DNA from: Arenicellales bacterium
Lineage (GTDB): Bacteria > Pseudomonadota > Gammaproteobacteria > Arenicellales > JAJDZL01
Reading direction: 5' to 3'
Assembly: GCA_965220725.1 (NCBI GenBank)
Contig: OZ244840.1
Span: forward strand, 1,268,180 to 1,332,179
DNA length: 64,000 nt
Of this stretch, positions 8,965-50,192 are shown piece after piece. Position 1 is the first letter of the stretch, and each line of letters begins with the position of its first letter. The notes below the pieces were generated by a model, which saw only the letters and a list, made by a program, of their open reading frames with translations, was not told the origin of the DNA and made no database searches. The position numbers were made by a program, and so were the translations under genes.

Positions 8965-9250
8965 ATCCCAGACACTGCCAATGCAGAACATTCAACAGTA
9001 TCAGCCAAAGCCGCACACTTTTGATAATTGACAACCAACTGTCAACTTCATAGTATAATCTGTCAATAACATGATGTAACTGATGTATGTTTCTGCAACC
9101 ACCAGTTTAATGCACATCCCCACAGTATTTTTACTTCCAGTTATCAACAGATAATTATTACGCATCCTACTGAATCCACTGGCTTTTTCCGAGTTATACC
9201 TATTTTGAACAGGCCTAACAGAAACATAAATATCACCTCTAGAAACTTTT

Positions 9251-10459: not shown

Positions 10460-10561
10460 CCGCAGTTCACTTGAACTGTTTAACCCTCTGCTTCGGTCCC
10501 GCCCGATGGGCAACAGACCGAACGACACAAACAGATTGAATATTCCCTGAAAGACGTTTCC

Positions 10562-19870: not shown

Positions 19871-20809
19871 TTAGCGTTGAAGTTTTTGAACTGCGTCCCG
19901 GCTAAGGTCAGTTACTTCGGCAACCTTTTCCGGATCCATGCCATCTCGGAGCAGATTCGCTGCGACTTCTTCCCGGACTTCTACCCGACCTTCTTCCCGA
20001 CCTTCCTGGCGAAGGAATTCTGCGGCTGATTGAAGCATCTGTCTTTCCTCCGAATTTCTTGCTTGCGCCAATATATCTCCCTTGGAGATATCCTCATTAT
20101 AATCGCTGAAATAACCAATCATCAACCCGTACGCCCACTCATGATCCTCTGGTGGGATAGTTCCTTTCCGGTCCAGCAACTCCTGCACCAAGGAGAGCCT
20201 TGCCTCGCGCACGTTCGACATCAAGTGGATTACCGTTTCAATGTTGGTGTCTCGTGCAAGGCCCAGCTGATCGATCTCGTTGACATCAATCAGCATGCAC
20301 TTGAAGTTCACCGAATATTCGGTCAGTATCGCCCGAAACTCGTCCGCGAGGTTCTTGTACAGGTCGATGAATTCGACCGGTGTAGTCTTGCGCGAGTTGG
20401 TGGAATCGGCGCGCGGGTCGTACTGAAGCACCACGATCGGAAGAATCGGTGACTTAAAATCGTTCTGCACGTGAATGAGGAACTGATTCCGGGCCACTTG
20501 CCGCAAAAGATTGGAGTCACGGTAGCTTTTGTGCTCGAACAGTAAAATCAGATGTATTACCTCGCCGCTGCCTTTGAGTTCAACGGAAAACACCAGGTCG
20601 GCGAATCTCTCAGGCAAGCCCGGGATTGCGATCTCGGTCGGCTGCAGGCTCAGCGTCGACCAGTCGATGAAGTCGGATAGATTGTCAGGAATACCAATAC
20701 GAATCAGGGTGATGACGTATTCAAGTCTTCGAAAGATGTCCTTGAAGAAACGGTCATGCAGACGTTCGGGGCGTTTGCCGGGTTCAATGGATGTATCAGA
20801 TTCTGCCAT
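19871..20809 (-). CDS. Rpn/YhgA-like recombination-promoting nuclease (PD-(D/E)xK, Transposase_31 family)
   Basis: HDRFFKDIF, FADLVFSVELKG, ILLFEHKS (D...E.K catalytic pattern). The C-terminal variable helical domain ends LLRDGMDPEKVAEVTDLSRDAV. Confidence 0.8.
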   Translation of the reverse strand: MAESDTSIEPGKRPERLHDRFFKDIFRRLEYVITLIRIGIPDNLSDFIDWSTLSLQPTEIAIPGLPERFADLVFSVELKGSGEVIHLILLFEHKSYRDSNLLRQVARNQFLIHVQNDFKSPILPIVVLQYDPRADSTNSRKTTPVEFIDLYKNLADEFRAILTEYSVNFKCMLIDVNEIDQLGLARDTNIETVIHLMSNVREARLSLVQELLDRKGTIPPEDHEWAYGLMIGYFSDYNEDISKGDILAQARNSEERQMLQSAAEFLRQEGREEGRVEVREEVAANLLRDGMDPEKVAEVTDLSRDAVQKLQR

Positions 20810-29789: not shown

Positions 29790-30734
29790 TTGATGGCGCA
29801 AACCAAAATGCGGATGTTCGGCACGAAGGAGCGGGTCGGATACAACTCCGATGAGTTCTATCAGCGGAGAATTCACGCAAAAATGCCGCCCGCAGGTGAT
29901 TCTGCATCCAGTGAACAGTCCGTACCGGATTGTGTGCTGAACAGGATATTCGGGCACTCCAGTGAGACCATGCACGAGTTGCCCGATGACAGCGTGCATC
30001 TGATGGTCACCTCACCACCCTATAATGTGGGCAAGGATTACGACGATGATCTCACTCAGCAGGAATACATGGAACTGTTGACGAATGTCTGGCGGGAAAC
30101 TTACAGGGTGCTGGCTCCGGGTGGCAGGGCGTGCATCAATGTGGCGAATCTGGGCCGCAAACCCTACATTCCACTCAATGCCCTGATCACGGGAGAAATG
30201 CTCAAGCTTGGATTTTTGATGCGCGGTGAGATTATCTGGAACAAGGCAGCCAGTGCTGGTGCGTCCTGTGCCTGGGGCAGTTGGAAGAATCCGGCAAATC
30301 CGGTCTTGCGCGATGTTCACGAGTACATCATGGTTTTCTGCAAGCAGGAATTCTCAAGACGCAAGCCAACGGATGATTCCAAATCGCCGACGATTACCAA
30401 GGACGAATTCCTGGACTCGACCAAGAGTGTGTGGAACTTTCCAGCAGAGTCGGCGAGGCGTGTTGGCCATCCCGCACCGTTTCCGCTGGCGCTGCCCACC
30501 CGTCTCATCGAGCTGTATACGTACTCCAATGATGTTGTGCTTGATCCGTTCATGGGGTCTGGAACCACTGCAGTCGCTGCTGTTCGTTCCCGGCGACACT
30601 TTGTCGGTTACGAAATCTCAAACGAATATATCGAGGTGGCTGAGCGAAGAGTGCAAAGGGAGGTCAATGAGTCCTCAGTCCAGCCGCAGTTGTCCATGGC
30701 GTTCAGCAGTCCCGGACAGTCGGCGACGGCATGA
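29790..30734 (+). CDS. Solitary beta-class DNA methyltransferase (N6_N4_Mtase family, SPPY motif IV; likely N4-cytosine)
   Basis: Motif IV LMVTSPPYNVGKDY comes before motif I VLDPFMGSGTTAVAA (beta permutation). No adjacent endonuclease ORF. Confidence 0.85.
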   Translation: MMAQTKMRMFGTKERVGYNSDEFYQRRIHAKMPPAGDSASSEQSVPDCVLNRIFGHSSETMHELPDDSVHLMVTSPPYNVGKDYDDDLTQQEYMELLTNVWRETYRVLAPGGRACINVANLGRKPYIPLNALITGEMLKLGFLMRGEIIWNKAASAGASCAWGSWKNPANPVLRDVHEYIMVFCKQEFSRRKPTDDSKSPTITKDEFLDSTKSVWNFPAESARRVGHPAPFPLALPTRLIELYTYSNDVVLDPFMGSGTTAVAAVRSRRHFVGYEISNEYIEVAERRVQREVNESSVQPQLSMAFSSPGQSATA

Positions 30735-31420: not shown

Positions 31421-32476
31421 TCAGCTTCGCTCAATCAGCCAGCCTGAGACCTTGAGCGGAATGTCGCGGCCGGCCTTGCCGCTGACATAGATTCCGATGT
31501 GGCCGGTGTCGTAGACCAGTTCCGTATAGTCTCTCGAACCCGTGACATACTTCAGGGCCTGCGAGGCGGCCGGAGGCACCAGGTGGTCCTGCTTGGCGTA
31601 GATATTGAGCAGCGGTTGTGTGACCGACTTCATGGATACGGATTCCTGTCCGATGGAAAGCCCGCCGTTCACCAGTCGGTTCTCATGGAAAAACCGTTTA
31701 AGAAAATCGCGGAACATCTCACCGGCCTGATCCGGGCTGTCGAAAATCCACTTCTCCATCTTCATGAAGTTTTCCACCTTGTCCGGTTGATCGGCGATTT
31801 GGACGAAGTCCAGGTATTTCTCAACGCCCAGTTTGAACGGTTTCAAAGACAGGAATATGCTGTTCAGAAATGGTCCCGGAATGTTGCCCATGGTGTCCAC
31901 CAGCAGGTCGATGTCAATTTCCTTGAACCACTGCGCAAGCATGTTGTCCGGTGTGTGAAAATCGACTGGTGTGACCATGGTCACCAGGTTGTTCACCTTG
32001 TTCGGCTGCAGTGCTGCATAGCAAAGGCTCATGGTACCGCCCTGACAGACACCGAGAATGTTTGCTTTCTTGGCGCCGGAGTGTTGCAGCGTCGCGTTCA
32101 CGCAGCGGTCGATCAGCACATTCACATAGTGCTCAAGGTTCAGATAACGGTCGGCAAGTCCCGGATATCCCCAATCGATCAGATAGACGTCGATGCCCTC
32201 ATTGAGCAATCCCCTGACCAGGGAGCGCTGTTCGTGCAGATCGACGATATAGGGACGATTGACCAGGGCATAGATGATCAGTAAGGGATTGGCCTTCTTG
32301 ACCGGCGCGCGTAATGGACGATATCGGTACAGTCCGAGATTGTCAATCTTCAATACCAGGTCTTTCGGTGTTGTGCCGACTTCGATTTCACCCAGGTTCG
32401 CGATGACGCGGGCGCCTTCCGCGAGACGGGTTTGAAATTGCGTGGACTGTTCAAATATCTTTTCGAATTCCTGCAT
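31421..32476 (-). CDS. phaC: Class III poly(R)-hydroxyalkanoate synthase, PhaC subunit
   Basis: Long collinear identity with Allochromatium-type PhaC as recalled: LLI(V/I)YALVNRPY, YLIDWGYP, lipase box GVCQGG, NLVTMVTPVDF.TPDN, MEKWIFDSPDQAGE, HIGIYVSGKA. 351 aa. Confidence 0.93.
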   Translation of the reverse strand: MQEFEKIFEQSTQFQTRLAEGARVIANLGEIEVGTTPKDLVLKIDNLGLYRYRPLRAPVKKANPLLIIYALVNRPYIVDLHEQRSLVRGLLNEGIDVYLIDWGYPGLADRYLNLEHYVNVLIDRCVNATLQHSGAKKANILGVCQGGTMSLCYAALQPNKVNNLVTMVTPVDFHTPDNMLAQWFKEIDIDLLVDTMGNIPGPFLNSIFLSLKPFKLGVEKYLDFVQIADQPDKVENFMKMEKWIFDSPDQAGEMFRDFLKRFFHENRLVNGGLSIGQESVSMKSVTQPLLNIYAKQDHLVPPAASQALKYVTGSRDYTELVYDTGHIGIYVSGKAGRDIPLKVSGWLIERS

Positions 32477-32482
32477 CTTGAA

Positions 32483-33343
32483 CTACTGCCTGGGTTTTCG
32501 GCTGCGTGTCTTTCCAGTAGCTGTCGTTTTTCGTGTTGTTCGCTTGGCCGGCGCCGGTCGGGCTTGCTTTGAGGGAGTCGCCAACTCCCTGACCTTCTCC
32601 TGAAGCGTGTCTATTTCGGTGCGCGCCTGCTTGAGAGCCTGATGCAAGCGGTCCAGTTCCGTTCGGGTGGGCTGGCCCTGCATGGTCTGAAACTGCTCCT
32701 GCATTTTGTTTGAGTGTTGGAGCAATCTCAAATAGGAATTGATCATCCGACCATATTTGCCGGCATACTCCGGCTGTGAGGCGACCTGCTGAAACTCATT
32801 GTCGCAACAGTCGATCCAGTCGCGCACAACGGCTTCAAACTCCACAGCCTCCTCGATTCCCGATACCGACTGCATGAATCTTTCAATCGCATTGCGCACG
32901 AACGACTGGAAAATGTCCATGAAGGCGCATGTTGCCGAGTCATACTCCTGGTTCAATTGCACCCATTTGCTCCAGTCTTCCTGAAATTCCCGACCGATAC
33001 CCAGTGCCGGTGGCTGACCGGTTTGGAGATTCCAGTTCTGGAATGCCTTGCCGGAGTCGAAGAACTGCCCCCACGGATTGTTGACCTGTCCCAATGCTGG
33101 AGCTTGGGGAAAAGTCTGCAGGACGGGATTGAAGGAGAACTGCCGGACCATCTGTTCGAGCTGTTGCGGGTTGATGGTGCTCGGTGTCTGCCCCTGCATG
33201 GATTCACAAATCGACCGGAACGCGTTGCCGAGCTCGTACATCTGGGCATAGACCGGTTGCATGGATGGCGCAGTTGCAGGCGGCGCAGCACTCCACATGG
33301 AGAGAGGATCGGTTGGACTTAAATTTGCCCAGGGATTGAACAT
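32483..33343 (-). CDS. phaE: Class III PHA synthase, PhaE subunit
   Basis: Directly upstream of phaC in the same operon. Collinear with recalled PhaE features: LGIGREFQE, PTRTELDRLHQALKQAR coiled coil, Lys/Arg/Thr-rich tail. Confidence 0.8.
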   Translation of the reverse strand: MFNPWANLSPTDPLSMWSAAPPATAPSMQPVYAQMYELGNAFRSICESMQGQTPSTINPQQLEQMVRQFSFNPVLQTFPQAPALGQVNNPWGQFFDSGKAFQNWNLQTGQPPALGIGREFQEDWSKWVQLNQEYDSATCAFMDIFQSFVRNAIERFMQSVSGIEEAVEFEAVVRDWIDCCDNEFQQVASQPEYAGKYGRMINSYLRLLQHSNKMQEQFQTMQGQPTRTELDRLHQALKQARTEIDTLQEKVRELATPSKQARPAPAKRTTRKTTATGKTRSRKPRQ

Positions 33344-33686
33344 GGATAAAGGGTTCCCGAGATCAATTCGCTATACGCTGACTTCCTACAAGACCGGACA
33401 TGAAATCACCAAGGCTGGCTCCAAGCTGAAGTCTATTGTGATCGACATATCTGATGCCACATTTGCATTTCTTCGACGATGAGTGATTAAAACTATATCA
33501 CACGCGCTGTGTTATCAGATTGGCAAAGGCTCGGCGAGAGGTGCCTACATTCGAAGTGGCTTGTCCACAGTCCCACATTTTTTGTGTGATGTGCAGCCTT
33601 CGAGTTTGGTTGGATGAATCAGTCAATTTTTCTTCGGCTGTACAATATGCGGCGAACCCTTATGGTGTAACAGGCAAACAGGTTGG

Positions 33687-34163
33687 TTGAAGATGACAGT
33701 AGCTGAAGGACAACACGCACCGGAATTCACATTGACTGCTACAGACGGACGCGAGGTGTCGCTGTCCGACTTTCGCGGCAGGAATGTGGTTGTGTATTTC
33801 TACCCTCGGGACGATACGCCCGGTTGTACGAAAGAGGCTTGTGGATTCAGGGACCTGATCAAGGAGATTCAGGATACAGGAACCGAAGTCATCGGAATCT
33901 CACCAGATGGCCCGGAGTCACACGCGAAGTTTGTCGAGAAGTATCAGCTGCCCTTTCTGTTGCTGTGCGACCCAGACCGAGAGGTCATGAGCGACTATGG
34001 CGCCTACGGTGAGAAGATGATGTACGGCAAGAAAACCGTGGGTGTGATTCGCTCAACCGTCATCATTGATCGGGATGGGAAGATTCTGCGGCATTGGAAG
34101 AAGGTTCCCAAGGCAGCTGACCATCCTTCCAAGGTGCTGGATGTGTTGAAGTCGGTCAATTGA
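33687..34163 (+). CDS. bcp: Thioredoxin-dependent peroxiredoxin Bcp
   Basis: VVYFYPRDDTPGCTKEAC active site. About 156 aa. An ATG at 33693 is an alternative start. Confidence 0.9.
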   Translation: MKMTVAEGQHAPEFTLTATDGREVSLSDFRGRNVVVYFYPRDDTPGCTKEACGFRDLIKEIQDTGTEVIGISPDGPESHAKFVEKYQLPFLLLCDPDREVMSDYGAYGEKMMYGKKTVGVIRSTVIIDRDGKILRHWKKVPKAADHPSKVLDVLKSVN

Positions 34164-34171
34164 CTACAAAA
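34161..34171. repeat. 11-bp direct repeat TGACTACAAAA, left copy (overlaps the bcp stop codon)
   Basis: An identical 11-mer recurs at 35045-35055. The pair brackets exactly one gene, the methyltransferase. Confidence 0.55.
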
Positions 34172-34209
34172 CTTCTTCGATTGTCATTCATCTTGAACAG
34201 ACAGTCCGA

Positions 34210-34995
34210 CTAGGCGACACTGTGAAGGGATTCCAGCCTGCTCCTGGCAATCGCAATATATTCGGCCGAGATATCCACACCGATAAACTTTCGATCATTC
34301 AATAAGGCCATCTTGCAAGTGGTACCGGAGCCGCACATGGGATCGAAAACCAGGTCCCCGGGGTTGCTCCACGAAAGAATGTGATCTTCGGCTAGTTTTT
34401 CTGGAAAGACTGCCGGATGCTGGAATGCAATCCTATCCGAAGTTGTCCCATGCAGACCGACAGCATATTGCCAAATGTTTGTTCGGGTCTTCTCTTTCTT
34501 CAGTTCTCCCAATCTCTTTTTGTTGATTCCGTCTGCGAGCTTGTTGTGGGTCAGCTTCTCAAAGCCACTTCGAACAGTTTTCTGTTTGAGCGGATTGAAA
34601 CGATTCGGAGTTCCTCTCGTGAGAACAAACATGAACTCGTAGCAATTTGTATAGGCGTTGCTCCGCATGAATGGCGTGTTTTTCTTCTGATAGATCATCA
34701 CATCGTGAGCCTTGAATCCAAGTTCCTGAAAGAAAACTCCCTGTCTGAAACTCGTCAGACTCTTCCCGCCATCGATCTTGTCTCCCACGACCCAGACTAC
34801 AACGCCTCCTTTCTTTGTCACCCGAAATAACTCCGATGCAATTTGTTCAAACGGGAAGGAATAGCCCTGGTAGTCTCGCAAGTCATCATAGGGTGGTGAG
34901 GTAATGGTCAGATCGACAGATTGATCTTGCAACTGACGCATAAAATCAACGCAATCAGCAACATAAAATTGATTGAATTTAACTTTGCCTTCCAT
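34210..34995 (-). CDS. Solitary beta-class DNA methyltransferase (SPPY motif IV; likely N4-cytosine)
   Basis: LTITSPPYDDLRDY (motif IV) comes before LVFDPMCGSGTTCKMA (motif I). Visibly more AT-rich than its neighbours. No endonuclease ORF adjacent. Confidence 0.85.
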   Translation of the reverse strand: MEGKVKFNQFYVADCVDFMRQLQDQSVDLTITSPPYDDLRDYQGYSFPFEQIASELFRVTKKGGVVVWVVGDKIDGGKSLTSFRQGVFFQELGFKAHDVMIYQKKNTPFMRSNAYTNCYEFMFVLTRGTPNRFNPLKQKTVRSGFEKLTHNKLADGINKKRLGELKKEKTRTNIWQYAVGLHGTTSDRIAFQHPAVFPEKLAEDHILSWSNPGDLVFDPMCGSGTTCKMALLNDRKFIGVDISAEYIAIARSRLESLHSVA

Positions 34996-35044
34996 GAGTC
35001 GCTTATGTATTCGGTGCGAAACTCAGTCGCCCCACCAGATTACA

Positions 35045-35055
35045 TGACTACAAAA
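35045..35055. repeat. 11-bp direct repeat TGACTACAAAA, right copy
   Basis: See the left copy at 34161-34171. Confidence 0.55.
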
Positions 35056-35432
35056 TCCAACTTCAGGTGATTGGCTGAATTGTACCATCTATGGAGGTGC
35101 CATGATTTGCCACACTGTTTTCAGAACGAGTGTCGCAATTGATGCCCAAGTGGACTTTCAAGTGTAACCTGCAGCACTGAGCAATTCGTACGCCAACAGT
35201 TCTTTGCTTGGTCAGTAAGTTAAGTTGCGGAGATTGACAGCAGTCCGCCAGGATTCTGAGATGGATTCACTCAGCGTGTTGTCTGACCAACGCCCCCTGT
35301 GATGGACGACTCTGAAGACAATGACTCGAAATGCAATTCAGATTCGCAGGTTGAAGCGTTGAACTCATTCTGCCCGGGTATCGTTAGTGATAAAATGGCG
35401 TCTTTAACCATATTCCTATAGGACATAGTGAA

Positions 35433-36158
35433 ATGACCTCACGAGTAGCAGTTGTCACCGGCGGAACCAGAGGCATCGGTGAAGCCATTTCTGTCGCACT
35501 CGCAGAAGCAGGCCACAAAGTTGCAGCAAACTACGGTGGCAACCGAGAGCGTGCGGAAGAATTCTCCAAGCGAACAGGAATTCCCGTGTACCAGTTCGAT
35601 GTCAGCGACTTCGAACAGTGCAAGGCGGGAATCGAGCAGATCACCCGAGATCTGGGCGATGTTGACATTGTAGTCAACAACGCAGGTATCACCAGGGATC
35701 GTACATTGCATTCGATGGATTTCGAGCAGTGGAATGCCGTGCTGCAGACCAATCTTTCATCCTGCTTCAACATGTGCCGTTGTGTCATTGAAGGGATGCG
35801 TGAGCGGGGCTTTGGCCGCATTGTCAACATCGGTTCTGTCAACGGGCAGGCCGGACAGTACGGTCAGGTCAACTACTCGGCTTCGAAGTCCGGTATTCAT
35901 GGATTCACCAAGGCGCTGGCAAAGGAGGGCGCCAGCAAGGGCATCACCGTCAATGCGATTGCACCCGGCTATGTCGATACAGACATGGTTCGCGCAGTTC
36001 CCGAAAAGGTGCTTGAGAAAATCATCCGCACAATTCCGGTCGGAAGACTGGGATATGCGGAAGACATAGCCAGGGGAGTGCTGTTCCTGGTGGACGACAA
36101 GGCATCATTCATCACAGGCTCCACGATTGACATCAATGGTGGACAGCACATGTATTGA
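35433..36158 (+). CDS. phaB: Acetoacetyl-CoA reductase (SDR)
   Basis: VTGGTRGIG, NNAGITRD, GRIVNI.SVNGQ.GQ.GQ.NYSASK.G.HGFTKALA.E.A.KGITVN.I.PGY..TDMV is collinear with Cupriavidus-type PhaB as recalled. Confidence 0.9.
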   Translation: MTSRVAVVTGGTRGIGEAISVALAEAGHKVAANYGGNRERAEEFSKRTGIPVYQFDVSDFEQCKAGIEQITRDLGDVDIVVNNAGITRDRTLHSMDFEQWNAVLQTNLSSCFNMCRCVIEGMRERGFGRIVNIGSVNGQAGQYGQVNYSASKSGIHGFTKALAKEGASKGITVNAIAPGYVDTDMVRAVPEKVLEKIIRTIPVGRLGYAEDIARGVLFLVDDKASFITGSTIDINGGQHMY

Positions 36159-36165
36159 TTGTGGC

Positions 36166-36633
36166 ATGGAGGACGCTCGCACCATCAAGAAGTACTCCAA
36201 TCGGCGTCTTTACGATACCGAGGAGAAAAAGTACATCAACCTGTCCGAAGTGCGCCAGTTGGTGCTGGATGATGTCAGGTTTGTAGTGACTGACGCCAAG
36301 TCCGGTGAGGACATCACCCGACAGATTCTCCTGCAGGTGATCGCCGAGCAGGAACTGGGGAGTCACCCCCTGTTCACCACGGAGATACTCAGCCAGATGA
36401 TCCGGTTCTATGGCGGTGCGTTTCAGAGCGTTTTCACCGATTATCTGAGCAAGACGATCTCGATGATCAACGGTCAGCAGCAAACCTACCAGGATCAATG
36501 GAACGACATGCTGAAGTCCGCTGGCATGCAGTCGGTCGGTGAAATGACACAGCAGAATATGAAGATCTGGACCGACATGCAGCAGCAGATGCTGCAGATG
36601 TATGGATTCAAGTCGGGCGACGACGATAAATAG
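36166..36633 (+). CDS. phaR: Polyhydroxyalkanoate synthesis repressor PhaR
   Basis: IKKYSNRRLYDTEEKKYINL.EV..LV is the PhaR N-terminal signature. The start was trimmed to the ATG just after the phaB stop. Confidence 0.88.
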   Translation: MEDARTIKKYSNRRLYDTEEKKYINLSEVRQLVLDDVRFVVTDAKSGEDITRQILLQVIAEQELGSHPLFTTEILSQMIRFYGGAFQSVFTDYLSKTISMINGQQQTYQDQWNDMLKSAGMQSVGEMTQQNMKIWTDMQQQMLQMYGFKSGDDDK

Positions 36634-40935: not shown

Positions 40936-43242
40936 TCAATGTTGGCCGGGTCTGATCCGGCGAATCGCGTTCCAAACCTTGAGTGGCGTGGCTGGTCCAT
41001 GCAGCTGCTCAAAACGCTCTGCGCCAAGCAGGTCGGAGATTGCGTTCTCGATTGCACCGGGCGCGCCGAGACTGCCTGACTCGCCTACGCCCTTGACGCC
41101 CAGATCATTGGTCTTGCTGGGCGTTGAGCGTTTCTCAAGAGTGAAAAACGGCAGATCCTGTGCGCGCGGCAACTGATAGTCCATCAACGAACCAGTCAGT
41201 ACGTGCCCTTCTTCATCCTCATCAAATCGCATGGCTTCCATCAGCGAGGTGCCGACAGATTGCGCCCAGGAGCCGTGAAGCTGTCCATCGACGATGGCAG
41301 GAAACAGGATGCGCCCGATGTCATCGACGCCGACCAGCTGCACGATCTCGAGGACGCCGGTGGCCGGGTCGCACTCAAGCTCGACCACGTAGGCACCGCT
41401 GGGGTGTGTGGTGTTGACGCCCTCAAAGTCAGCCGCCCCCACACATCCCGAGCCGCCCTGTTCGCGAGCAGCTGCAATTTCACGCAGGCTGATTTTACGG
41501 TCGGTACCGGCAATCACGAACGCCCCATCCCGATACTCAAGGTCGGCCGCTGATGCCTCCAGTCGGTTTGAGGCGGCTTGCCGGGCCTGGGTGAGCATGT
41601 GTTCAGCCGCCCTGCGCATGGTGACACCGGCGATCGCGGTCATCGACGAACCGCCGGTACCGCCGCCGGTTGCGATCGCATCGGTATCGCCCTGAATCAC
41701 CTCGACGCGGGAGGCATCGATCTCAAGCACCTCGGCAACCAGCGAGGCGAGTGTGGTGGCGTGCCCCTGTCCGCCGGACTGGGTGCCGGTGACAGCCAGC
41801 ACCGAACCGTCCCTGCACAGCCGCACTTCGGCTCTTTCGGCTTTGGAGCCGCCGGTGGAGTGCATGTACATGCCAAGACCGATGCCGCGCAGCAAGCCGT
41901 GTCGCTCAGCCTCGCGCCGCCGCTTCGGAAAACCGTTCCAATCCGCGAGTTGCAGCGCACGGTCGAGCAGTCCGGGAAAGTCGCCGCTGTCAATCACCTG
42001 GCCGTTCGGCATCGGGTACGGCAACTCATCCGGTCGCACCAGGTTGCGCCGCCGCAGTTCCACCCGGTCGATGCCGGTGTCATGTGCCGCCTTGTCGATG
42101 AGTTGCTCAACGGTAGCCACCATTTCCGGCTTGCCGGCACCACGGTAGGCATCGGTCGGCGTGGCGTTGGTGAATACGCCCCTGCAACGATAGTGGATGC
42201 AGGGAATTCGGTAGGTGTGTCCGATGACCGTGTACGCATACTGGGTCGGTACCGCGGGCCCCACGTAGGACAGGCACGCACCGAGATCGCTCACAGCCTC
42301 AATCTGCAACGCGGTAAACCGCCCGTCGGCGTCGATGCCGAGCCTTGCCCGGTCGGTCCGCGCCCGTCCATGCGAATCCGAGACAAACGACTCCGAACGG
42401 GTCGCGGTCCACTTGACCGGCCTGCGCAGCTGACGGGATGCCACGAGCACCAGGGCGTATTCGGGATAGGTGAAAATCTTCATGCCGAAACTGCCCCCGA
42501 CGTCGGGCGTGATAACGGTGAGATTTTCCAGAGGGATATTCAAGACATCCTGCGCCAGAACACGGCGCACCATGTGCACGCCCTGCGTCTGGACATGCAG
42601 GGTTAACCGATCAGTTTCCGGATGATATTCAGCCAGTGCCGAGCGGGGTTCGATGGGCGTGATGGACATCCTGGGATGATGCACCTCGACTTCAACGACA
42701 TGCTCAGCGCCTGTCATGGCCTCGGCGACCTCATCGTCACTGCCCGTGCTCCAATCGAAACAGATGTTGTCCGGCGCGTCGTCCCAGATTCGGACGTCGG
42801 AACGCAGTGCCTTGCGGGTGGAACTGACACCGGGGCGCTCGCGGTAGTCGATGTCTACGAGATCAGCGGCATCCTGGGCACTCTCAAGGGAATCGGCTAC
42901 CACAAAGGCAACCGGCTCGCCTACATGACGCACGCGGTCACCGGCGAGAATCGGTCGCGGCGGCTTGTGAATCAAGGATCCATCCTGGTTGCTGAGATCA
43001 GCCACACAGGGCAGATCTCCGATCTTTTGTTCAACAAGATCAGCGTAGGTGAGCACCAGTGAAACGCCCCGAAGGGCTTTTGCGGCTTCAACATCGACAC
43101 CGAGAATGTCCGCGTGCGGATAGGCGGAACGTACAACACAGCCGTAAACGAGGCCGTCCTTCGTCAAATCATCGACAAACCGCCCGCGCCCGGTGAGCAG
43201 GGCGTGGTCTTCTCGACGTAATGGGGAGTTCGACTTTGTCAT
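40936..43242 (-). CDS. Molybdopterin-binding large subunit of a xanthine dehydrogenase/CO-dehydrogenase-family hydroxylase
   Basis: 768 aa. LLTGRGRFVDD N-terminus, GGSFG, AYRGAGKPE, GGQGHAT motifs typical of CoxL/XdhB-type subunits. Confidence 0.85.
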   Translation of the reverse strand: MTKSNSPLRREDHALLTGRGRFVDDLTKDGLVYGCVVRSAYPHADILGVDVEAAKALRGVSLVLTYADLVEQKIGDLPCVADLSNQDGSLIHKPPRPILAGDRVRHVGEPVAFVVADSLESAQDAADLVDIDYRERPGVSSTRKALRSDVRIWDDAPDNICFDWSTGSDDEVAEAMTGAEHVVEVEVHHPRMSITPIEPRSALAEYHPETDRLTLHVQTQGVHMVRRVLAQDVLNIPLENLTVITPDVGGSFGMKIFTYPEYALVLVASRQLRRPVKWTATRSESFVSDSHGRARTDRARLGIDADGRFTALQIEAVSDLGACLSYVGPAVPTQYAYTVIGHTYRIPCIHYRCRGVFTNATPTDAYRGAGKPEMVATVEQLIDKAAHDTGIDRVELRRRNLVRPDELPYPMPNGQVIDSGDFPGLLDRALQLADWNGFPKRRREAERHGLLRGIGLGMYMHSTGGSKAERAEVRLCRDGSVLAVTGTQSGGQGHATTLASLVAEVLEIDASRVEVIQGDTDAIATGGGTGGSSMTAIAGVTMRRAAEHMLTQARQAASNRLEASAADLEYRDGAFVIAGTDRKISLREIAAAREQGGSGCVGAADFEGVNTTHPSGAYVVELECDPATGVLEIVQLVGVDDIGRILFPAIVDGQLHGSWAQSVGTSLMEAMRFDEDEEGHVLTGSLMDYQLPRAQDLPFFTLEKRSTPSKTNDLGVKGVGESGSLGAPGAIENAISDLLGAERFEQLHGPATPLKVWNAIRRIRPGQH

Positions 43243-43504: not shown

Positions 43505-44515
43505 ATGAACAACTCTTCAGACAACCACACATGGACTGCACCACAGGTGCAGGCATTGTTCGAACTGCCCTTCAATGACCTCTTGTTCCGGGCGCACTCC
43601 GTCCATCGGGAGAACTTTGTCCCCAACCAGGTGCAGAAAAGCCGACTCGTCAATATCAAGACCGGTGGTTGTCCCGAGGATTGCAAATACTGCAGCCAGT
43701 CAATCCGCTATCAAACAGACGTCGATGTCAGCAAGCTGATGCGTGTCGACGATGTCATTGCGGACGCCCGGGCCGCCAAGGCCGACGGTGCCACCCGCTA
43801 CTGCATGGGTGCCGCCTGGCGCGGGCCGCAGTCCAGTCACATGGAGAGTCTGTGCAGCATGATCAGGGAAGTCAAGTCGCTGGGCATGGAAACCTGCATG
43901 ACACTGGGACTGCTGAACCGCGAGCAGGCTGTCCAGCTCAAGGAGGCTGGCCTGGACTACTACAATCACAACGTGGATACCTCACCGGAATACTACGAGG
44001 AGATCATCACCACCCGAACCTTCGCTGACCGCCTTAAAACCATCGACCACGTGCGCGAGGCCGGCATGAAAGTCTGCTGCGGAGGCATTCTGGGCATGGG
44101 CGAGTCAGAACAGGACCGCGGCAGCATGCTGGCAGTCCTGGCGAACATGGAACATCCGCCGGAAAGCGTGCCGATCAATATGCTGGTACCCATTCCGGGT
44201 ACACCGCTTGAGGACGCCGCACACGTTGAGCCGCTTGACTTTGTGCGCACCATCGCAGTGGCAAGAATCATGCTTCCGCGTTCGGTGCTGCGGCTGTCAG
44301 CCGGACGAAGGTCCATGTCAGAAGAGCTGCAGGCGCTTTGCTTTTTTGCCGGTGCCAACTCGATCTTTGTCGGTGCGCGATTACTCACCACCGACAACGT
44401 TGAATATGACCACGATGAGGCACTATTCAACAAATTGGGTCTCGAGGAGATGCCGGGTTTCGCCAACGACTCGCGAGCTGATATTCCCCAACCGGCCGGG
44501 GAACTGGTGTCATGA
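43505..44515 (+). CDS. bioB: Biotin synthase
   Basis: Radical-SAM motif [13 protein letters not shown], plus YCMGAAWR and YNHNVDTS. Confidence 0.95.
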
Positions 44516-45180
44516 CAGTCACAATCTCAAGTCTGACCGGTGAGTTCGGCCGCAACAATGAGAGTCTCGAGGACTGGACGCTCACGGTATTCAGCGAGCT
44601 TTGCGGTGACGCACAAAGTGCCCAGCTGTTTCTCAATACGCTGTCCTACATGGAGCACATTGGCAGTTACAAGATCATGGCCACACAGCGCACCGATGTG
44701 ATGGACTATTCCACGCTGAAGCATCTCAACGAGGAAACCGGACACGCGGTGCTGTTCAAGCGCCACGCGGAGCGTCTCAGCGATCAGGGCATCGACTATT
44801 CGTCGGAGTCACTGCTTGCACCGGCGACCGCCCGCGCTTACTTCAACCGCCTGGAGATCGGCATGGTGCGGCTGTTCGGCCGCGAGGCCAACTACCGAAC
44901 CGTGTATCTTTACATGTCGATGATCGTGGAATTCCGCGCGGTGTGGGCCTACGAGATTCTGCAAAAGGCATTGGACCAAAACAGTCTGGAGGTGTCTTTG
45001 GACCGGCTGCTGGCTGAAGAGCAGGGGCACCTCTACAGCATGATCCGGCGGCTGGAGGCCGACGATCTTTTCAACCTGCGCTGGGTCCGCCAGCTGTGGG
45101 GTCAGGAGCAGGTGCTGTTCATTCGCCTGTTGAAAGCCATCGGCAACCGGCTGGACCAGCCAAATCTAAAAGTCGCCTGA
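44512..45180 (+). CDS. Ferritin-like di-iron carboxylate protein of unknown function, translationally coupled to bioB
   Basis: ATGA start/stop overlap with bioB. Ligand pattern E48 (YMEH), E75-x-x-H78 (EETGH), E140 (IVEF), E170-x-x-H173 (EEQGH), with spacings of 27 and 30. Predicted all-helical, 222 aa. Confidence 0.6.
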
Positions 45181-45183
45181 AAG

Positions 45184-46458
45184 CTAACCAGCCCCGAGCA
45201 GTTCCGACACGGTCCCCTCGATCGTGTCGTAGATGAAGTCCAGATCATCCTCGGTGACACAGTAAGGCGGGAGCACGTAGATGGTGTTCCCAAGCGGGCG
45301 CAGCAATACACCACTTTTCTGAAACCGAAGATACAGCTCGGTGCCAACCTGCGAGAGGTATCCGCCGTCCGGTACCACCACATCCATTGCTGCGATGGTG
45401 CCCTGCCGGCGCGTCGCGGTCAGGTACGCAGATTTCGAGATCTCGGACAGTTTGGCCTCCTGCATCGACGCGACCTTGGCCACCTGCTCTGAAACTTTTG
45501 GCGTTTTCCACATCTCCAGGTTGGCGGCGGCGACCGCACAGGCAATGGGATTCGCGGTATACGAGCTCGAATGGAAGAAGGTCTTGCTGCGGTCGGTGGA
45601 GTAGTGGGCCTGGAAGATCCGCTGGTGACACATGGTTGCCGCAAGTGGCAGGAACCCGCCGGTGATGCCCTTGGAGTAACAGGCAATGTCCGGAACAACC
45701 CCGGCCTGGTCACAGGCAAAAATCGTGCCGGTACGCCCCCAGGCGGTCATCACCTCATCGGCGATGAACAACACCTCGTAGCGTTCGCAGATCCGTTTCA
45801 TTTCGCTCAGGGTGTTAGCGCCGTACATCAGCATCCCGCCGGCACCGAGTACCAGCGGCTCAACAATGAAGGCGGCTACGTCATTGCCCGCGCGACAGGA
45901 CTGTTCAAGTCTGTCTAGGGTCTCCTGTTCACGGCCTTGATGGGGGAACGGAATGCTCTCAACCGAAAAAAGCAGGGGATTGTAGGGTTGGTTGAAGACG
46001 CCGCGCTCGCCGACCGACATGGTACCGATGGTGTCGCCGTGATAGCTGTGCTCAAGTACGATGATCCGGTCGCGGCGGATGCCCAGGTGGTGCCAGTAAC
46101 CGAGGGCCATTTTCAGTGCGACTTCGACCGCGGTGGAACCGCTGTCTGAGAAAAACACATGGTCCAACCCGTCCGGTGTGAGCTCATCCAGCAACCGGGC
46201 GGTGTGCTGTGCGGGCTCATGGGTGTAGCCGGCGAAGATCACCTGGTCGAGGCGCTCAATCTGCTGCCGTGCGGCCTGCTGCATGGTTGGATGGCAATGG
46301 CCGTGCGTGATCACCCACCACGATGAGATGGCGTCGATGATTCTTTCCCCATCGGCGGTATACAGGTAAGCACCGGACGCCCGGTCAATCTCGAGGAACT
46401 CTGGAAACAGGGCGTGCTGGGTGAATGGATGCCAGATCGTTGAGCGGGTTTGGTTCAT
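45184..46458 (-). CDS. bioA: Adenosylmethionine-8-amino-7-oxononanoate aminotransferase
   Basis: Class III aminotransferase. WHPF, SGSTAVE, FIADEV.T..GRTG, PLG.T.Y..PP. A 4-nt overlap with bioD upstream. Confidence 0.93.
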   Translation of the reverse strand: MNQTRSTIWHPFTQHALFPEFLEIDRASGAYLYTADGERIIDAISSWWVITHGHCHPTMQQAARQQIERLDQVIFAGYTHEPAQHTARLLDELTPDGLDHVFFSDSGSTAVEVALKMALGYWHHLGIRRDRIIVLEHSYHGDTIGTMSVGERGVFNQPYNPLLFSVESIPFPHQGREQETLDRLEQSCRAGNDVAAFIVEPLVLGAGGMLMYGANTLSEMKRICERYEVLFIADEVMTAWGRTGTIFACDQAGVVPDIACYSKGITGGFLPLAATMCHQRIFQAHYSTDRSKTFFHSSSYTANPIACAVAAANLEMWKTPKVSEQVAKVASMQEAKLSEISKSAYLTATRRQGTIAAMDVVVPDGGYLSQVGTELYLRFQKSGVLLRPLGNTIYVLPPYCVTEDDLDFIYDTIEGTVSELLGAG

Positions 46459-47114
46459 GTGAGCGCCTCTGTGAATTGGGTGATGTCAAAGTGGTTCTGA
46501 AATGCGGTTCGCAATGCCGAAAGGTCGAGCGGGTCCAGGAATGGCAATCGGCCGAGATGCCTGACCTCGCCCAGGCGGGGAATGATGGACTCATTTTCCT
46601 GATGCGGGTCGCCGACGAAGATCACACCGTGTAAGTCGACCGACCAGTGACGCAGGGCATCAATGGTCAGGAGTGTGTGGTTGATGGTACCGAGCGTGGT
46701 TCGGGCGCAGACGATCGCCGGCAGTTGCCACTCGCAAAAGGCCTTGACGAAAAGCATGTCGGCGGTGAGCGGCACCATCACACCTCCTGCGCCTTCCACA
46801 ATCAGCGTGGATGCGGTATCGGGCAGGGTCAGCTGGTCGATGTCGATTTCAACACCGTCGATGGCTGCCGCCAGATGCGGTGAGGCGGGTGTGTTCAACC
46901 GGTAGGCTTCCGCAAAAAAATGCTGATCGGGCAGGCCGGTGACGCGCCGGACGAATTCGGTGTCGGTCTCCTCGTCAAGCCCGGCCTGCACCGGCTTGAA
47001 GTAGGCTGCATTCAATGCATCAACCAGCATGGTACTGACCACCGTCTTGCCGATACCGGTGTCGGTTCCGGTGACGAGAAATCCACGAGGGGCGGTGTTG
47101 GGTGTCTGTGACAT
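46455..47114 (-). CDS. bioD: Dethiobiotin synthase
   Basis: GFLVTGTDTGIGKTVVS P-loop, EGAGG. The start is either the ATG at 47114 (4 nt after the bioF stop) or the one at 47141. Confidence 0.9.
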   Translation of the reverse strand: MSQTPNTAPRGFLVTGTDTGIGKTVVSTMLVDALNAAYFKPVQAGLDEETDTEFVRRVTGLPDQHFFAEAYRLNTPASPHLAAAIDGVEIDIDQLTLPDTASTLIVEGAGGVMVPLTADMLFVKAFCEWQLPAIVCARTTLGTINHTLLTIDALRHWSVDLHGVIFVGDPHQENESIIPRLGEVRHLGRLPFLDPLDLSALRTAFQNHFDITQFTEALT

Positions 47115-47118
47115 TGGT

Positions 47119-48282
47119 TCAGATCTCAATGGGTGTCGCATTCAGTTGCTTCATGATGCGGTAAAGTGTATCAAACATCTGGTTGATCTCGTCTTCGGTT
47201 ACATTCAGGGTGATGGAAATCCTGAGCCTCGAGGTGCCGGTGGGTACCGTGGGCGGCCGGATGGCCCGCAGGTCAAAGCCTGCCCGCTGCATCTGCCCGG
47301 CGATTTGTGTCGTCAGTGATTCATCTCCGATGATGAAGGGAATGATCTGCGAGCCACTGCCGCGGACTCCGAATCGGCGTTCGAGCTCATGATTGGCGAA
47401 GTCAGCGCGTTGCTTGAGTTCCTGCCTCAGTTCGGGATGGGATGCAATGGTCCGCAACGCGGCTCGGACCGCAACCGCGGTCAGCGGTGACGGTGCGGTC
47501 GAATAGATGAATGGCCGACAGCGGGTGACCATGTAATCGATCAGCGTCGATGGCGCACAGATCAGCGCGCCCGCAGCACCCAGCGCCTTGCCGCAGGTAT
47601 GCAGCACAATCAGATTGTCATGCCCCTGCCAGGGTTCGGTCAGCCCGCACCCGCCATCACCAAAAAGGCCGGTGGCATGCGCTTCGTCAACCAGCAGCAT
47701 CGCATTGTGACGCTCGGCGATGCGGACCAGTTCCCCGAGCGGTGCCTGGTCTCCGTCCATGCTGTAGAGACTCTCGACCACAATCCACGCAACCGAGGAC
47801 GATGCCCGATCTGCGTGCCAGTTTGCAATGACCCTGTCGATCGCATCCGGGTTATTGTGCGCTACCTTGACACCAGTTGCCTGGGTGGTGAAGACACCCT
47901 CGCGGATGCTCGCATGGGACAAGGCGTCAAAGACAATCAGGTCCTGCTTTTTGGGCAGGGTGGTGAGCAAGGCAAAGTTGGCGCTGTAGCCGCTGCTGAA
48001 AAAAAGGGATTTCCCGCAACCGAAAAACGCCGCTGCCTCCTGTTCGAGTTGCTGATGGACGTCATGGTTGCCCCGAAGCAGGCGTGAGCCACCGGCACCC
48101 AGGGCAATGCCGTCCTTGAGCGCATGTTCGACCGTGCGGCGAATCTGTTCATGGTGGCTGAGTCCGAGAAAGTCATTGGAGGTGAAATCAATGCCCTCGA
48201 TTGCGGACAGTTCCCGTTTGAGGTGGCGGTCGCGAAGGACGGTCAACTCTTCATCGCAGCGTCTGATCAGGTCATCTTTCAT
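47119..48282 (-). CDS. bioF: 8-amino-7-oxononanoate synthase
   Basis: SNDFLGLS, DEAH..G, and a GKALG-type PLP lysine region (HTCGKALG). Trimmed to the ATG at 48282, because the first 35 codons of the track ORF look non-coding. Confidence 0.9.
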   Translation of the reverse strand: MKDDLIRRCDEELTVLRDRHLKRELSAIEGIDFTSNDFLGLSHHEQIRRTVEHALKDGIALGAGGSRLLRGNHDVHQQLEQEAAAFFGCGKSLFFSSGYSANFALLTTLPKKQDLIVFDALSHASIREGVFTTQATGVKVAHNNPDAIDRVIANWHADRASSSVAWIVVESLYSMDGDQAPLGELVRIAERHNAMLLVDEAHATGLFGDGGCGLTEPWQGHDNLIVLHTCGKALGAAGALICAPSTLIDYMVTRCRPFIYSTAPSPLTAVAVRAALRTIASHPELRQELKQRADFANHELERRFGVRGSGSQIIPFIIGDESLTTQIAGQMQRAGFDLRAIRPPTVPTGTSRLRISITLNVTEDEINQMFDTLYRIMKQLNATPIEI

Positions 48283-48386
48283 TCGAGGTGGTTTGTGTTG
48301 AATGACATGGAAAATCGATTTTTGTGCATAATACTTGGAGAACAACAACGAACCCAGTGTAATTTTAGGGATTTTGAGGAGGCGCA

Positions 48387-48920
48387 ATGAGATTCAAGTT
48401 TCGACTTTCACTCTTTTTCATGTTGGCAATCGGTCTGACCCCGTGTGCCGTACACGCGCATACCTATTCATCCGAGTCAAAAACCGACGAGCAGGCGCTT
48501 GCGGTGCTGGAGAATCGAAGTGAGTTCATGAAAAACCTGGGCTCAGCCATGAAAGCCTTTACGAACTATCTGCGACGAGGTGACGGAAACCCGTCGGACT
48601 TGAGTGCGATGGCGCGGGAAATCGCTGACAACGCGCCAGGCATTCCTGATCTGTTCCCTGAAAACACGGGGATCGACCACTTCGAGGACAGCGAGGCGAT
48701 AGCTGCGGTGTGGGAGAACTGGCCTGAATTCGTTGCGGCGGCCAATGAACTAGTCGAGCCCGCACAAGCCCTGGCCACGGCCTTTGCCGCGGTCGCAGAC
48801 GGTGTGGAGGATGCGGAACATGATGCGGCCGCAAGATTCAGGGACCTGGGTCGCATCGGCTGCAAATCCTGTCACGACCGGTTCCGCGATGAGGATCATG
48901 ACCATTCAGCACATGATTGA
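48387..48920 (+). CDS. Class II c-type cytochrome (cytochrome c'/c556-like), periplasmic
   Basis: Signal peptide, a four-helix-type sequence, and a single CKSCH heme motif near the C-terminus, followed by the Asp/His-rich tail DEDHDHSAHD. Confidence 0.72.
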   Translation: MRFKFRLSLFFMLAIGLTPCAVHAHTYSSESKTDEQALAVLENRSEFMKNLGSAMKAFTNYLRRGDGNPSDLSAMAREIADNAPGIPDLFPENTGIDHFEDSEAIAAVWENWPEFVAAANELVEPAQALATAFAAVADGVEDAEHDAAARFRDLGRIGCKSCHDRFRDEDHDHSAHD

Positions 48921-49006
48921 GTGAGGCGTTTGAGATTTGTTCATTTCATGCCGCGTGTAGCATAATGCACGCTATCGTATTCATTTTTCCAACAAGTGGT
49001 AGAGCT

Positions 49007-49504
49007 ATGAAAACCATAAACAAACTTTCACTGTCCTTTCTGTTGGTGTTCGGTCTGACCATACCCGTTGCGCAAGCCCAGTCCGGACCGTCTATGGTCG
49101 CATCCGAGGAGGAGGCCATGGCAGTATTGGAGAATCGCAGTGAATTCATGAAGGGGATGGGCAGTGCGATGAGGGCTTTTTCGAATTATCTCAAGCGCGG
49201 TGACGGCGAACCGCTGGAGTTGGGTTCGATGGCGGCTGACATCGCGGAAAACGCCTCGTCGATTCCCGACCTGTTCCCAAAAGACACCGGCATGGCACAG
49301 TTTGAGGACAGTGAGTCCAAGCCCAATATCTGGGAGCAATGGGATGAGTTTGTCGACGCCGCCAATGGTCTGGTTGAACCGGCCATGGCAGTGGAGGCGG
49401 CCTTTGAATCAGGGGATCAGGGTCAGATTGCCGCCAGTGTCAAGGCGCTTGGCGGAAATGGATGCCGCACCTGCCACACGTCATTCCGAGAGAAGAAAGA
49501 GTGA
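49007..49504 (+). CDS. Class II c-type cytochrome (cytochrome c'/c556-like), paralogue
   Basis: Roughly half the residues are identical to the preceding gene (AVLENRSEFMK..GSAM.AF.NYL.RGDG). CRTCH lies near the C-terminus. Trimmed to the ATG at 49007, which precedes the signal peptide MKTINKLSLSFLLVFGL. Confidence 0.72.
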   Translation: MKTINKLSLSFLLVFGLTIPVAQAQSGPSMVASEEEAMAVLENRSEFMKGMGSAMRAFSNYLKRGDGEPLELGSMAADIAENASSIPDLFPKDTGMAQFEDSESKPNIWEQWDEFVDAANGLVEPAMAVEAAFESGDQGQIAASVKALGGNGCRTCHTSFREKKE

Positions 49505-49508
49505 CGGC

Positions 49509-50192
49509 TCAGCCGTACTGATAGAAAATCCAGACCATGATGGCCGCCGTGACCAACGCGGTTGCGGCGCCTTTCCAGTTGGGCGCCAGGGTTGGCTTGT
49601 CTGCAGCCACACTCTGTGGAACGGCCTTTTGACCGATAATCATCGGCTTGACCAGGTTGTCCTTTTTGTAGACGTAGTAAAACAGGCTGGCTGCCAGATG
49701 CAGCGCGATAAGCGTCAGCAAAATGGATTCATTGTCCAGATGAACATCGGTTGCCCAACGACTCAGATCATAACTGACGTAGTAGGCGAAAGGACCCTCG
49801 ATCAGACCATCAATGTCTGAGGCTACCAGCCCGGTGGCCACCTGCACGGTGATGATCACCAATATCGCGATTACTGCGAGCGAACCGATCGGGCTGTGAC
49901 CAACACTGTAGCCTGGCTCGCGCAGGTGCAGACTCCTGACATACCCGACATAGTCCCGTGGATGGAATATCAGCGCGCGGAATCGTGCATTCGAGCTGCC
50001 GACAAATCCCCAGATGATCCTGGCGACGAGCAGCATTGCGATCAGCTTGCCGGTGAATATGTGGACATCGAAGTTGTCCAGTTCGGCGCTGATGAACATG
50101 ACCGCAACCAGTATGGCGAGCAGCCAGTGGAATATACGCAACGGCAGATCCCAGATTCGAATGGAGACTTCGTTGGAATTATCGGAATTCAT
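49509..50192 (-). CDS. Cytochrome b561 / Ni-hydrogenase b-type cytochrome family membrane protein
   Basis: IRIWDLPLRIFHWLLA (conserved His in TM1), four TM segments, further His in TM2 and TM4 (GHSPIG, HLAAS). Confidence 0.78.
   Translation of the reverse strand: MNSDNSNEVSIRIWDLPLRIFHWLLAILVAVMFISAELDNFDVHIFTGKLIAMLLVARIIWGFVGSSNARFRALIFHPRDYVGYVRSLHLREPGYSVGHSPIGSLAVIAILVIITVQVATGLVASDIDGLIEGPFAYYVSYDLSRWATDVHLDNESILLTLIALHLAASLFYYVYKKDNLVKPMIIGQKAVPQSVAADKPTLAPNWKGAATALVTAAIMVWIFYQYG

Follow-up and report, generated by a model that had tools for sequence, protein, structure and literature searches.

What does a small protein do when its gene begins inside the stop codon of bioB, in a biotin cluster that encodes the late steps of the pathway? 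The question arises in a 64,000-nucleotide stretch of an Arenicellales bacterium genome (GCA_965220725.1, contig OZ244840.1, positions 1,268,180 to 1,332,179), hereafter the window, where an open reading frame (ORF) at 44512..45180 on the forward strand encodes a protein of 222 residues from an ATG start. We conclude that the product is very probably a BioE-type ferritin-like diiron oxygenase, co-translated with BioB, which would cleave an acyl thioester at C7-C8 to yield a pimeloyl thioester. Judged by its sequence, the window protein is a new, divergent, Arenicellales-type proteobacterial member of the already known BioE family and not a new kind of system. Homology (by BLASTP and hhalign), ligand conservation and operon embedding were shown here, and an AlphaFold2 (AF2) model and profile matches are consistent with a ferritin-like fold class.

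The starting point was a first-pass annotation which had described the ORF as starting within an ATGA that it shares with the stop codon of bioB and as carrying a diiron ligand set with gaps of 27 and 30 residues; both features were confirmed from the sequence and its translation. The ATG (44512-44514) shares with the bioB stop TGA (44513-44515) a 4-nt overlap region at 44512..44515 on the forward strand, an arrangement indicative of translational coupling, and the start context is gtgtcATGAcag (tcATGAca). The same annotation had suggested that an O2-activating diiron enzyme provides or processes the pimelate moiety, cleaving a C-C bond oxidatively much as BioI does, and this suggestion is now supported by homology to BioE, six aligned ligands and the operon context.

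Elizabethkingia meningoseptica (EmBioE, BBD33_16475) and Chryseobacterium indologenes both have BioE, which was shown to be a ferritin-like non-haem diiron oxygenase (PMC12704756; PNAS, Dec 2025). EmBioE cleaves C14-C18 acyl thioesters of coenzyme A (CoA) or of acyl carrier protein (ACP) at C7-C8 to pimeloyl-CoA/ACP and a Cn-7 acid in a reaction that requires O2 and a reductant, and BioE complements E. coli delta-bioC, delta-bioH and delta-bioC/H strains (PMC12704756). Activity depends on the ligands E26, E53, H56, E125, E155 and H158, whose mutation abolishes it, and the closest relative of known structure is cyanobacterial aldehyde-deformylating oxygenase (cADO; PMC12704756). In the Chlamydia psittaci enzyme (CpBioE), which is monomeric, ACP-specific and without BioL, the ligands are E41, E68, H71, E140, E170 and H173; EmBioE and CpBioE differ in carrier specificity and oligomeric state (PMC12915131, likewise of December 2025). 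Carrier-binding and acyl-channel residues important in these two enzymes include F24, R31, K32 and R87 as well as W33, L37, L40, I48, Y147 and others (PMC12704756, PMC12915131). At an identity cut-off of >40%, the published distribution of BioE takes in Bacteroidota families, Chlamydiaceae and Burkholderiaceae. The literature on Arenicellales and biotin yielded nothing informative.

Neither Pfam nor NCBIfam (June 2026) returned a match to the window protein at E <= 1 except a spurious one to PadR, and a single-sequence search of the PDB sequences returned none. A profile of the window protein's family, searched against 1.84 billion representative proteins, gave 651 proteins at E <= 1e-3, many of them about 200-211 residues long and matching from profile position ~24. 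Three matches carry the exact ligand numbering of EmBioE, one being a Sphingobacterium oryzagri protein that, used as a query, led to proteins of Elizabethkingia, Chryseobacterium, Chitinophaga and Flavobacterium. The EmBioE sequence was thus recovered indirectly, from the profile search through the Sphingobacterium match to the E. meningoseptica protein P0328 (209 residues) in the published operon context. The P0328 locus reads divergent GntR and aminotransferase genes / P0328-bioF-bioD / bioB-bioA, equivalent to the published bioL / bioEFD / bioBA, and its residues match the published numbers E26, E53, H56, E125, E155, H158, F24, R31, K32, R87, Q88 and H91. Because operon layout and residue numbers agree with those published, P0328 is, on sequence grounds, EmBioE or a near-identical allele. 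P0328 likewise has no Pfam or NCBIfam match; since a characterised BioE is equally unmatched, the missing match of the window protein reflects a gap in the libraries and not novelty.

A BLASTP comparison of the window protein with P0328 gave 36% identity over 168 residues (E 4e-28). When the window clade was aligned with 23 Bacteroidota BioE sequences by hhalign, the two clades matched over 196 columns with 99.9% probability (E 1.2e-33). In the multiple alignment, the window clade is 25-31% identical to Bacteroidota BioE. Carrier-contact residues K32 and R87 of EmBioE are kept as K54 and R108 in the window protein. Along the hydrophobic channel, L44, I55 and Y147 are identical and EmBioE W18 is conservatively replaced by F40. 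EmBioE F24 is likewise conservatively replaced, by Y46, and M25 is kept as M47, whereas R31, L131 and Y135 are not conserved (Y53, A146 and L150); the CpBioE positions were mapped by numbering offsets alone.

The six putative iron ligands align with those of EmBioE. Glu-48 (codon 44653..44655, forward strand, as are the other ligand codons) corresponds to E26 of EmBioE. The first ExxH motif, E75-T-G-H78 (44734..44745; E75 at 44734-44736, H78 at 44743-44745), corresponds to E53/H56. Glu-140 (44929..44931) corresponds to E125, and the second ExxH motif, E170-Q-G-H173 (45019..45030; E170 at 45019-45021, H173 at 45028-45030), to E155/H158. None of the six varies among 36 aligned relatives (40-69% identity), nor did any vary once 28 remoter relatives (24-31% identity) had been added, a conservation far beyond chance. 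In the combined alignment, the ligands align column for column with those of EmBioE and are invariant across 58 sequences from both clades.

A single-sequence AF2 model was unusable, with a predicted local distance difference test (pLDDT) score of 49, and was replaced by an alignment-based AF2 model that is all-helical, with a pLDDT of 90.5 and a predicted template modelling (pTM) score of 0.88. In this model the ligands lie on helices 34-57, 66-90, 128-156 and 164-183. Against the PDB sequences, cADO ranked first both with the clade profile (E 1.2e-3) and with the combined profile (E 9.5e-5), and was followed by about 18 more cADO entries. The E140 and ExxH columns of the combined profile align with cADO; the similarity is marginal and lies in the C-terminal half. 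This top match agrees with the closest structural relative published for BioE.

To place the gene in its genomic context, one genome per species was scanned, yielding 80 homologue loci of up to 10 kb each side from Arenicellales metagenome-assembled genomes (53-71% identity) and other Gammaproteobacteria as well as from Rhodospirillales, among them Defluviicoccus vanus, Nitrospirillum and Azospirillum sp. B4. Linkage was scored by tblastn with BioB, BioA, BioD and BioF of the window, within 10 kb. A neighbourhood survey of this kind had been proposed in the first-pass annotation; it revealed bio genes in 44 of the 80 loci, arranged in two layouts, and an E. coli-type BioC or BioH match (tblastn, E <= 1e-5) in none of them. 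In the first layout, bioB and the homologue are convergent with bioF-bioD-bioA (L001-L027 and L029, almost all labelled Arenicellales); in the second, found in Rhodospirillales, Defluviicoccus and others, the genes are colinear as bioB-bioF-bioD-bioA-homologue. In at least 20 of the 29 bioB-linked loci, almost all of them Arenicellales, the homologue starts inside the end of bioB, with an overlap of either 4 nt or 1 nt; in at least eight loci of the colinear layout its ATG is placed 38 nt inside bioA's 3' end. This overlap of about 38 nt with bioA (L028, L031, L033, L039, L063, L070, L078, L080; around locus position 10000 in the full-length loci), set in a conserved TACGATG context, is unusually long, conserved and out of frame. 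The overlap of Elizabethkingia bioE with bioF represents a third layout. In all, bio operons of three phyla contain the gene, in three independent layouts. Its coupling partner is simply the adjoining bio gene, be it bioB, bioA or bioF, which speaks for a role in the pathway and against one specific to BioB.

In a neighbour-joining tree, the proteobacterial sequences formed a single clade apart from the Bacteroidota BioE proteins. The Arenicellales and Defluviicoccus-type subclades are all linked to bio genes, a third subclade mixes linked members with a few unlinked ones (among them Nitrospirillum and Azospirillum sp. B4), and a large, mainly soil-gammaproteobacterial subclade is not linked. 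The loci with no bio gene within 10 kb are L030, L032, L035-L038, L040-L044, L046-L048, L050-L061, L064-L069, L071 and L073-L075. No biotin-related or redox-partner gene shared among these 36 loci was seen, their neighbours being judged by eye and not against family libraries. Recurrent neighbours of the unlinked homologues are a protein of ~470-490 residues encoded directly downstream and a protein of ~790 residues, both by eye unrelated to biotin.

The window cluster itself agrees with the arrangement described in the first-pass annotation, in which bioB and the ORF are convergent with bioF-bioD-bioA; NCBIfam matches confirmed each assignment. Biotin synthase, encoded by bioB as the first gene of the bioB-bioE unit (43505..44515, forward strand), matches TIGR00433 (E 4e-124) and has Radical_SAM and BATS domains. 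On the reverse strand, bioA (45184..46458; NF004624, E 5e-179) is the last gene of the convergent operon, preceded by the dethiobiotin synthase gene bioD (46455..47141; TIGR00347, E 1e-38), which has a 4-nt overlap with the bioA start, and by bioF (47119..48387; TIGR00858, E 1e-102), encoding 8-amino-7-oxononanoate synthase, the enzyme that uses up the pimeloyl thioester. The TIGR00858 match begins at residue 62 of the 422-residue bioF ORF, which opens with TTG at 48385-48387; the true start is probably the ATG at 48280-48282 (MKDDLIRR..., ~387 residues).

Also upheld, within the 64 kb window, was the earlier statement that no known route to the pimeloyl thioester is encoded here: phmmer searches, together with Pfam searches of 40 further window ORFs, identified no BioC, BioH, cytochrome P450/BioI, BioW or KAS-III/BioZ-type gene. 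The sole alpha/beta hydrolase in the window ORFs examined is a class III PhaC adjoining PhaE, and the methyltransferases of the window comprise two DNA N6/N4 enzymes and one of the MTS/PrmC type.

Taken together with the published enzymes, these data suggest the following scheme, for which we infer the reaction, substrates and O2 dependence from EmBioE and CpBioE. The window protein would be translated together with BioB and bind two irons via E48, E75/H78, E140 and E170/H173 on four core helices. With O2 and an electron donor, it would carry out a multi-step oxidative cleavage at C7-C8 of a ~C14-C18 acyl-ACP and/or acyl-CoA, releasing a pimeloyl thioester and a Cn-7 fatty acid. The pimeloyl thioester would then pass to BioF, BioA and BioD of the convergent operon and on to BioB, giving biotin, and the BioE route would replace the BioC/BioH, BioI/BioW or BioZ routes.

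Several observations weigh against this assignment. Identity to EmBioE is just 36% over the 168 aligned residues (28% in the multiple alignment), which is under the >40% survey cut-off. Near the active site or the carrier surface, EmBioE N27 is replaced by an invariant H49, R31 by Y53, L131 by A146 and Y135 by L150; at the N terminus the window protein also carries a helix of 22 residues, and one of its loops is shorter by 7 residues than in EmBioE. In 36 of the 80 homologue loci, chiefly of the soil gammaproteobacterial subclade and joined by Nitrospirillum and Azospirillum sp. B4, there is no bio gene within 10 kb. A Foldseek search of the AF2 model against the PDB gave weak matches, the best at E 0.03 (TenA, Dps-like), with cADO outside the top 50. 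TenA/haem-oxygenase-like proteins were at the top with a TM score of about 0.55, and bacterioferritin was also among the weak matches. The TenA matches were not taken to favour a haem-oxygenase-like diiron fold, since the E/ExxH/E/ExxH pattern and the cADO profile matches point to the ferritin-like class. The clade-specific changes spare every validated catalytic residue.

Among the alternatives, a BioE-like oxygenase of the biotin pathway with differing chemistry or substrate (strict use of ACP or of CoA, other chain lengths, free fatty acids, or partial oxidation) appears distinctly unlikely. It would account for the substitutions at reported carrier and acyl contacts (R31 to Y53, Q88 to A109, H91 to N112, L131 to A146, Y135 to L150), for the invariant H49 beside ligand E48 and for the extra N-terminal helix, and EmBioE and CpBioE themselves differ in carrier specificity and oligomeric state (PMC12915131). 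However, BioF in the operon needs precisely a pimeloyl thioester, no BioW ligase or other helper lies nearby, and the match in core residues and overall profile is strong. The first-pass annotation had offered a role in support of BioB, for example in iron handling or repair, as its own alternative. Such a factor would store or deliver iron, or protect or repair the sacrificial [2Fe-2S] cluster of BioB, a function analogous to that of mycobacterial BsaP. The tight translational coupling to bioB in Arenicellales loci would fit such an accessory factor, as would the ferritin-like fold, with Dps-like proteins and bacterioferritin among the weak Foldseek matches. In other lineages, however, the homologue is coupled to bioA (by the 38-nt overlap) or to bioF; by sequence, its nearest relative in the PDB is cADO, which oxidises a substrate, and not a ferritin; and the closest characterised homologue is an oxygenase whose sole known role is pimeloyl synthesis and which complements delta-bioC/H with normal BioB (PMC12704756). 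The accessory role is hence not favoured, and we regard it as very unlikely.

Lowest of all we place the chance that the gene lies beside bioB by coincidence and encodes an unrelated stress or iron protein of the ferritin-like or rubrerythrin type, or else a hydroxylase of the MiaE/Coq7 type. Some relatives are annotated as 'rubrerythrin' or 'bacterioferritin' at source, and the 36 unlinked loci could be read in the same sense. Yet no Pfam or NCBIfam family for ferritin, rubrerythrin, MiaE or Coq7 matches the protein at E <= 1, homology to BioE is strong, and chance would have to explain bio-operon embedding in three independent layouts and three phyla; family-library searches, BioE alignments and operon context already largely refute it. 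The family placement that the first-pass annotation had left to profile and structure searches came out, by sequence and profile comparison, as a BioE homologue.

A further possibility retains the BioE assignment and modifies it: the proteobacterial clade would be a mechanistically distinct BioE variant (in carrier, chain length or redox partner), with the unlinked subclade making a non-biotin dicarboxylate. The grounds for it are the 22-residue N-terminal helix, the invariant His by the first Glu ligand and the altered carrier-surface and channel residues, and we consider it unlikely. The His in question, H49 (44656-44658), follows the first Glu ligand and is invariant in the proteobacterial clade (30 of 30 sequences), whereas Bacteroidota BioE has an invariant Asn there (19 of 19). 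In these alignments, H49 sets the clade apart, at a site within or close to the second coordination sphere.

With the BioE-type oxygenase as the preferred reading, the analysis extends the family to a clade more divergent than those in the published survey, built into the biotin operons that marine Arenicellales carry and into those of Defluviicoccus and other Rhodospirillales; both these lineages and their operon layouts lie outside that survey. The clade probably fills the 'missing pimelate arm' in Arenicellales, Defluviicoccus and Rhodospirillales genomes. Since Pfam and NCBIfam (June 2026) miss even characterised BioE, such genes are still annotated as hypothetical, and biotin prototrophy would wrongly be predicted as incomplete for such genomes. 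A profile built from our alignments (A1-A3) would mend BioE annotation, which is of practical use for marine and wastewater Proteobacteria. The data also indicate that BioE can do without BioL and without a set operon partner; BioL is not defining for BioE, because the active CpBioE also lacks it (PMC12915131).

In the window cluster, the bioE-like gene and bioA are convergent with their stop codons 3 bp apart (45178-45186), and a search between or just past these stops revealed no terminator-like hairpin, so that the two transcripts must overlap or end inside the opposing gene. Upstream of bioB and bioF, no convincing BirA/bioO-like palindrome or conserved operator turned up, and a promoter and terminator scan gave matches no more numerous than in shuffled controls. 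No GntR/MocR (BioL-type) gene flanks the cluster. The 5' side is instead occupied by genes for a molybdopterin-binding oxidoreductase subunit and a SIS-domain protein. The former (40936-43242, reverse strand) is a 768-residue molybdopterin-binding large subunit of the xanthine dehydrogenase/aldehyde oxidase family, divergent from bioB, with no iron-sulfur (FeS) or flavin adenine dinucleotide (FAD) subunit gene adjacent; it recurs as the upstream neighbour in 25 homologue loci. On the other side, 48387-50192 holds two cytochrome c' genes in tandem (177 and 195 residues, with a C-terminal CxxCH in both) and then, in convergent orientation, a cytochrome b561 gene. In 12 loci a comparable place downstream of the bio cluster is taken by a family of unannotated ORFs of ~165 residues, which may correspond to this cytochrome c'.

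Elsewhere in the window, dnaA, dnaN and gyrB stand in a row (7594-13018), with recF not between dnaN and gyrB, and this row places the chromosomal replication-origin region inside the window. A polyhydroxyalkanoate cluster (31421-36633) comprises class III phaC (351 residues), phaE (286 residues), a short-chain dehydrogenase/reductase gene (35433-36158), which may encode an acetoacetyl-CoA reductase, and phaR (36127-36633). The two N6/N4 DNA methyltransferase genes lie at 29790-30734 and 34210-34995; among the ORFs examined, neither has an obvious restriction partner. There are also a DDE transposase gene (771-2171), a YhgA-like (Transposase_31) gene (19871-20809) and a gene for a 1127-residue autotransporter with He_PIG Ig-like and fibronectin type III repeats (2739-6122).

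Comparison with the characterised enzymes shows how the window protein relates to them. With EmBioE and the C. indologenes BioE (PMC12704756) it shares near full-length homology, the same six ligands, the 27- and 30-residue spacings and EExxH, which occurs twice. K32/K54, R87/R108, Y89/Y110 and Y132/Y147 (EmBioE/window numbering) are kept, and in both cases the gene is embedded in the late-step bio genes and overlaps one of them, with no BioC/BioH found nearby. In contrast to the CHARACTERISED enzymes, the window protein falls under the survey identity cut-off and has an N-terminal extension of 22 residues, for which the model shows an additional helix. H78 and E140 are separated by a spacer of 62 residues, compared with 69 in EmBioE, and Q88 and H91 of EmBioE are A109 and N112. 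The window gene follows bioB, whereas the EmBioE gene precedes bioF; BioL is not adjacent in the window, and the host is a gammaproteobacterium and not a member of the Bacteroidota.

CpBioE (PMC12915131) resembles the window protein in having an N-terminal extension relative to EmBioE (its first ligand is E41, that of EmBioE E26) and in lacking BioL, and its last three ligands carry the same numbers, E140, E170 and H173, in a comparison by residue number. CpBioE is ~40% identical to EmBioE yet active, a divergence comparable to that of the window protein (PMC12915131). Among solved structures, cADO (PDB 5uwz, 5k53, 4rc5, 2oc5) is the best relative by profile, with the third and fourth ligand helices aligned. 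cADO is a ferritin-like diiron enzyme in which a long acyl or alkyl chain is bound and a C-C bond broken, as would be the case for the window protein; it removes the aldehyde C1 as formate, however, and does not cut an internal C7-C8 bond. According to the literature, BioI (CYP107H1) of Bacillus subtilis carries out the O2-dependent C7-C8 cleavage of long-chain acyl-ACP to pimeloyl-ACP. It is the proposed functional analogue of the window protein, which would reach the same net reaction with a fold and cofactor unrelated to the haem-thiolate P450 of BioI.

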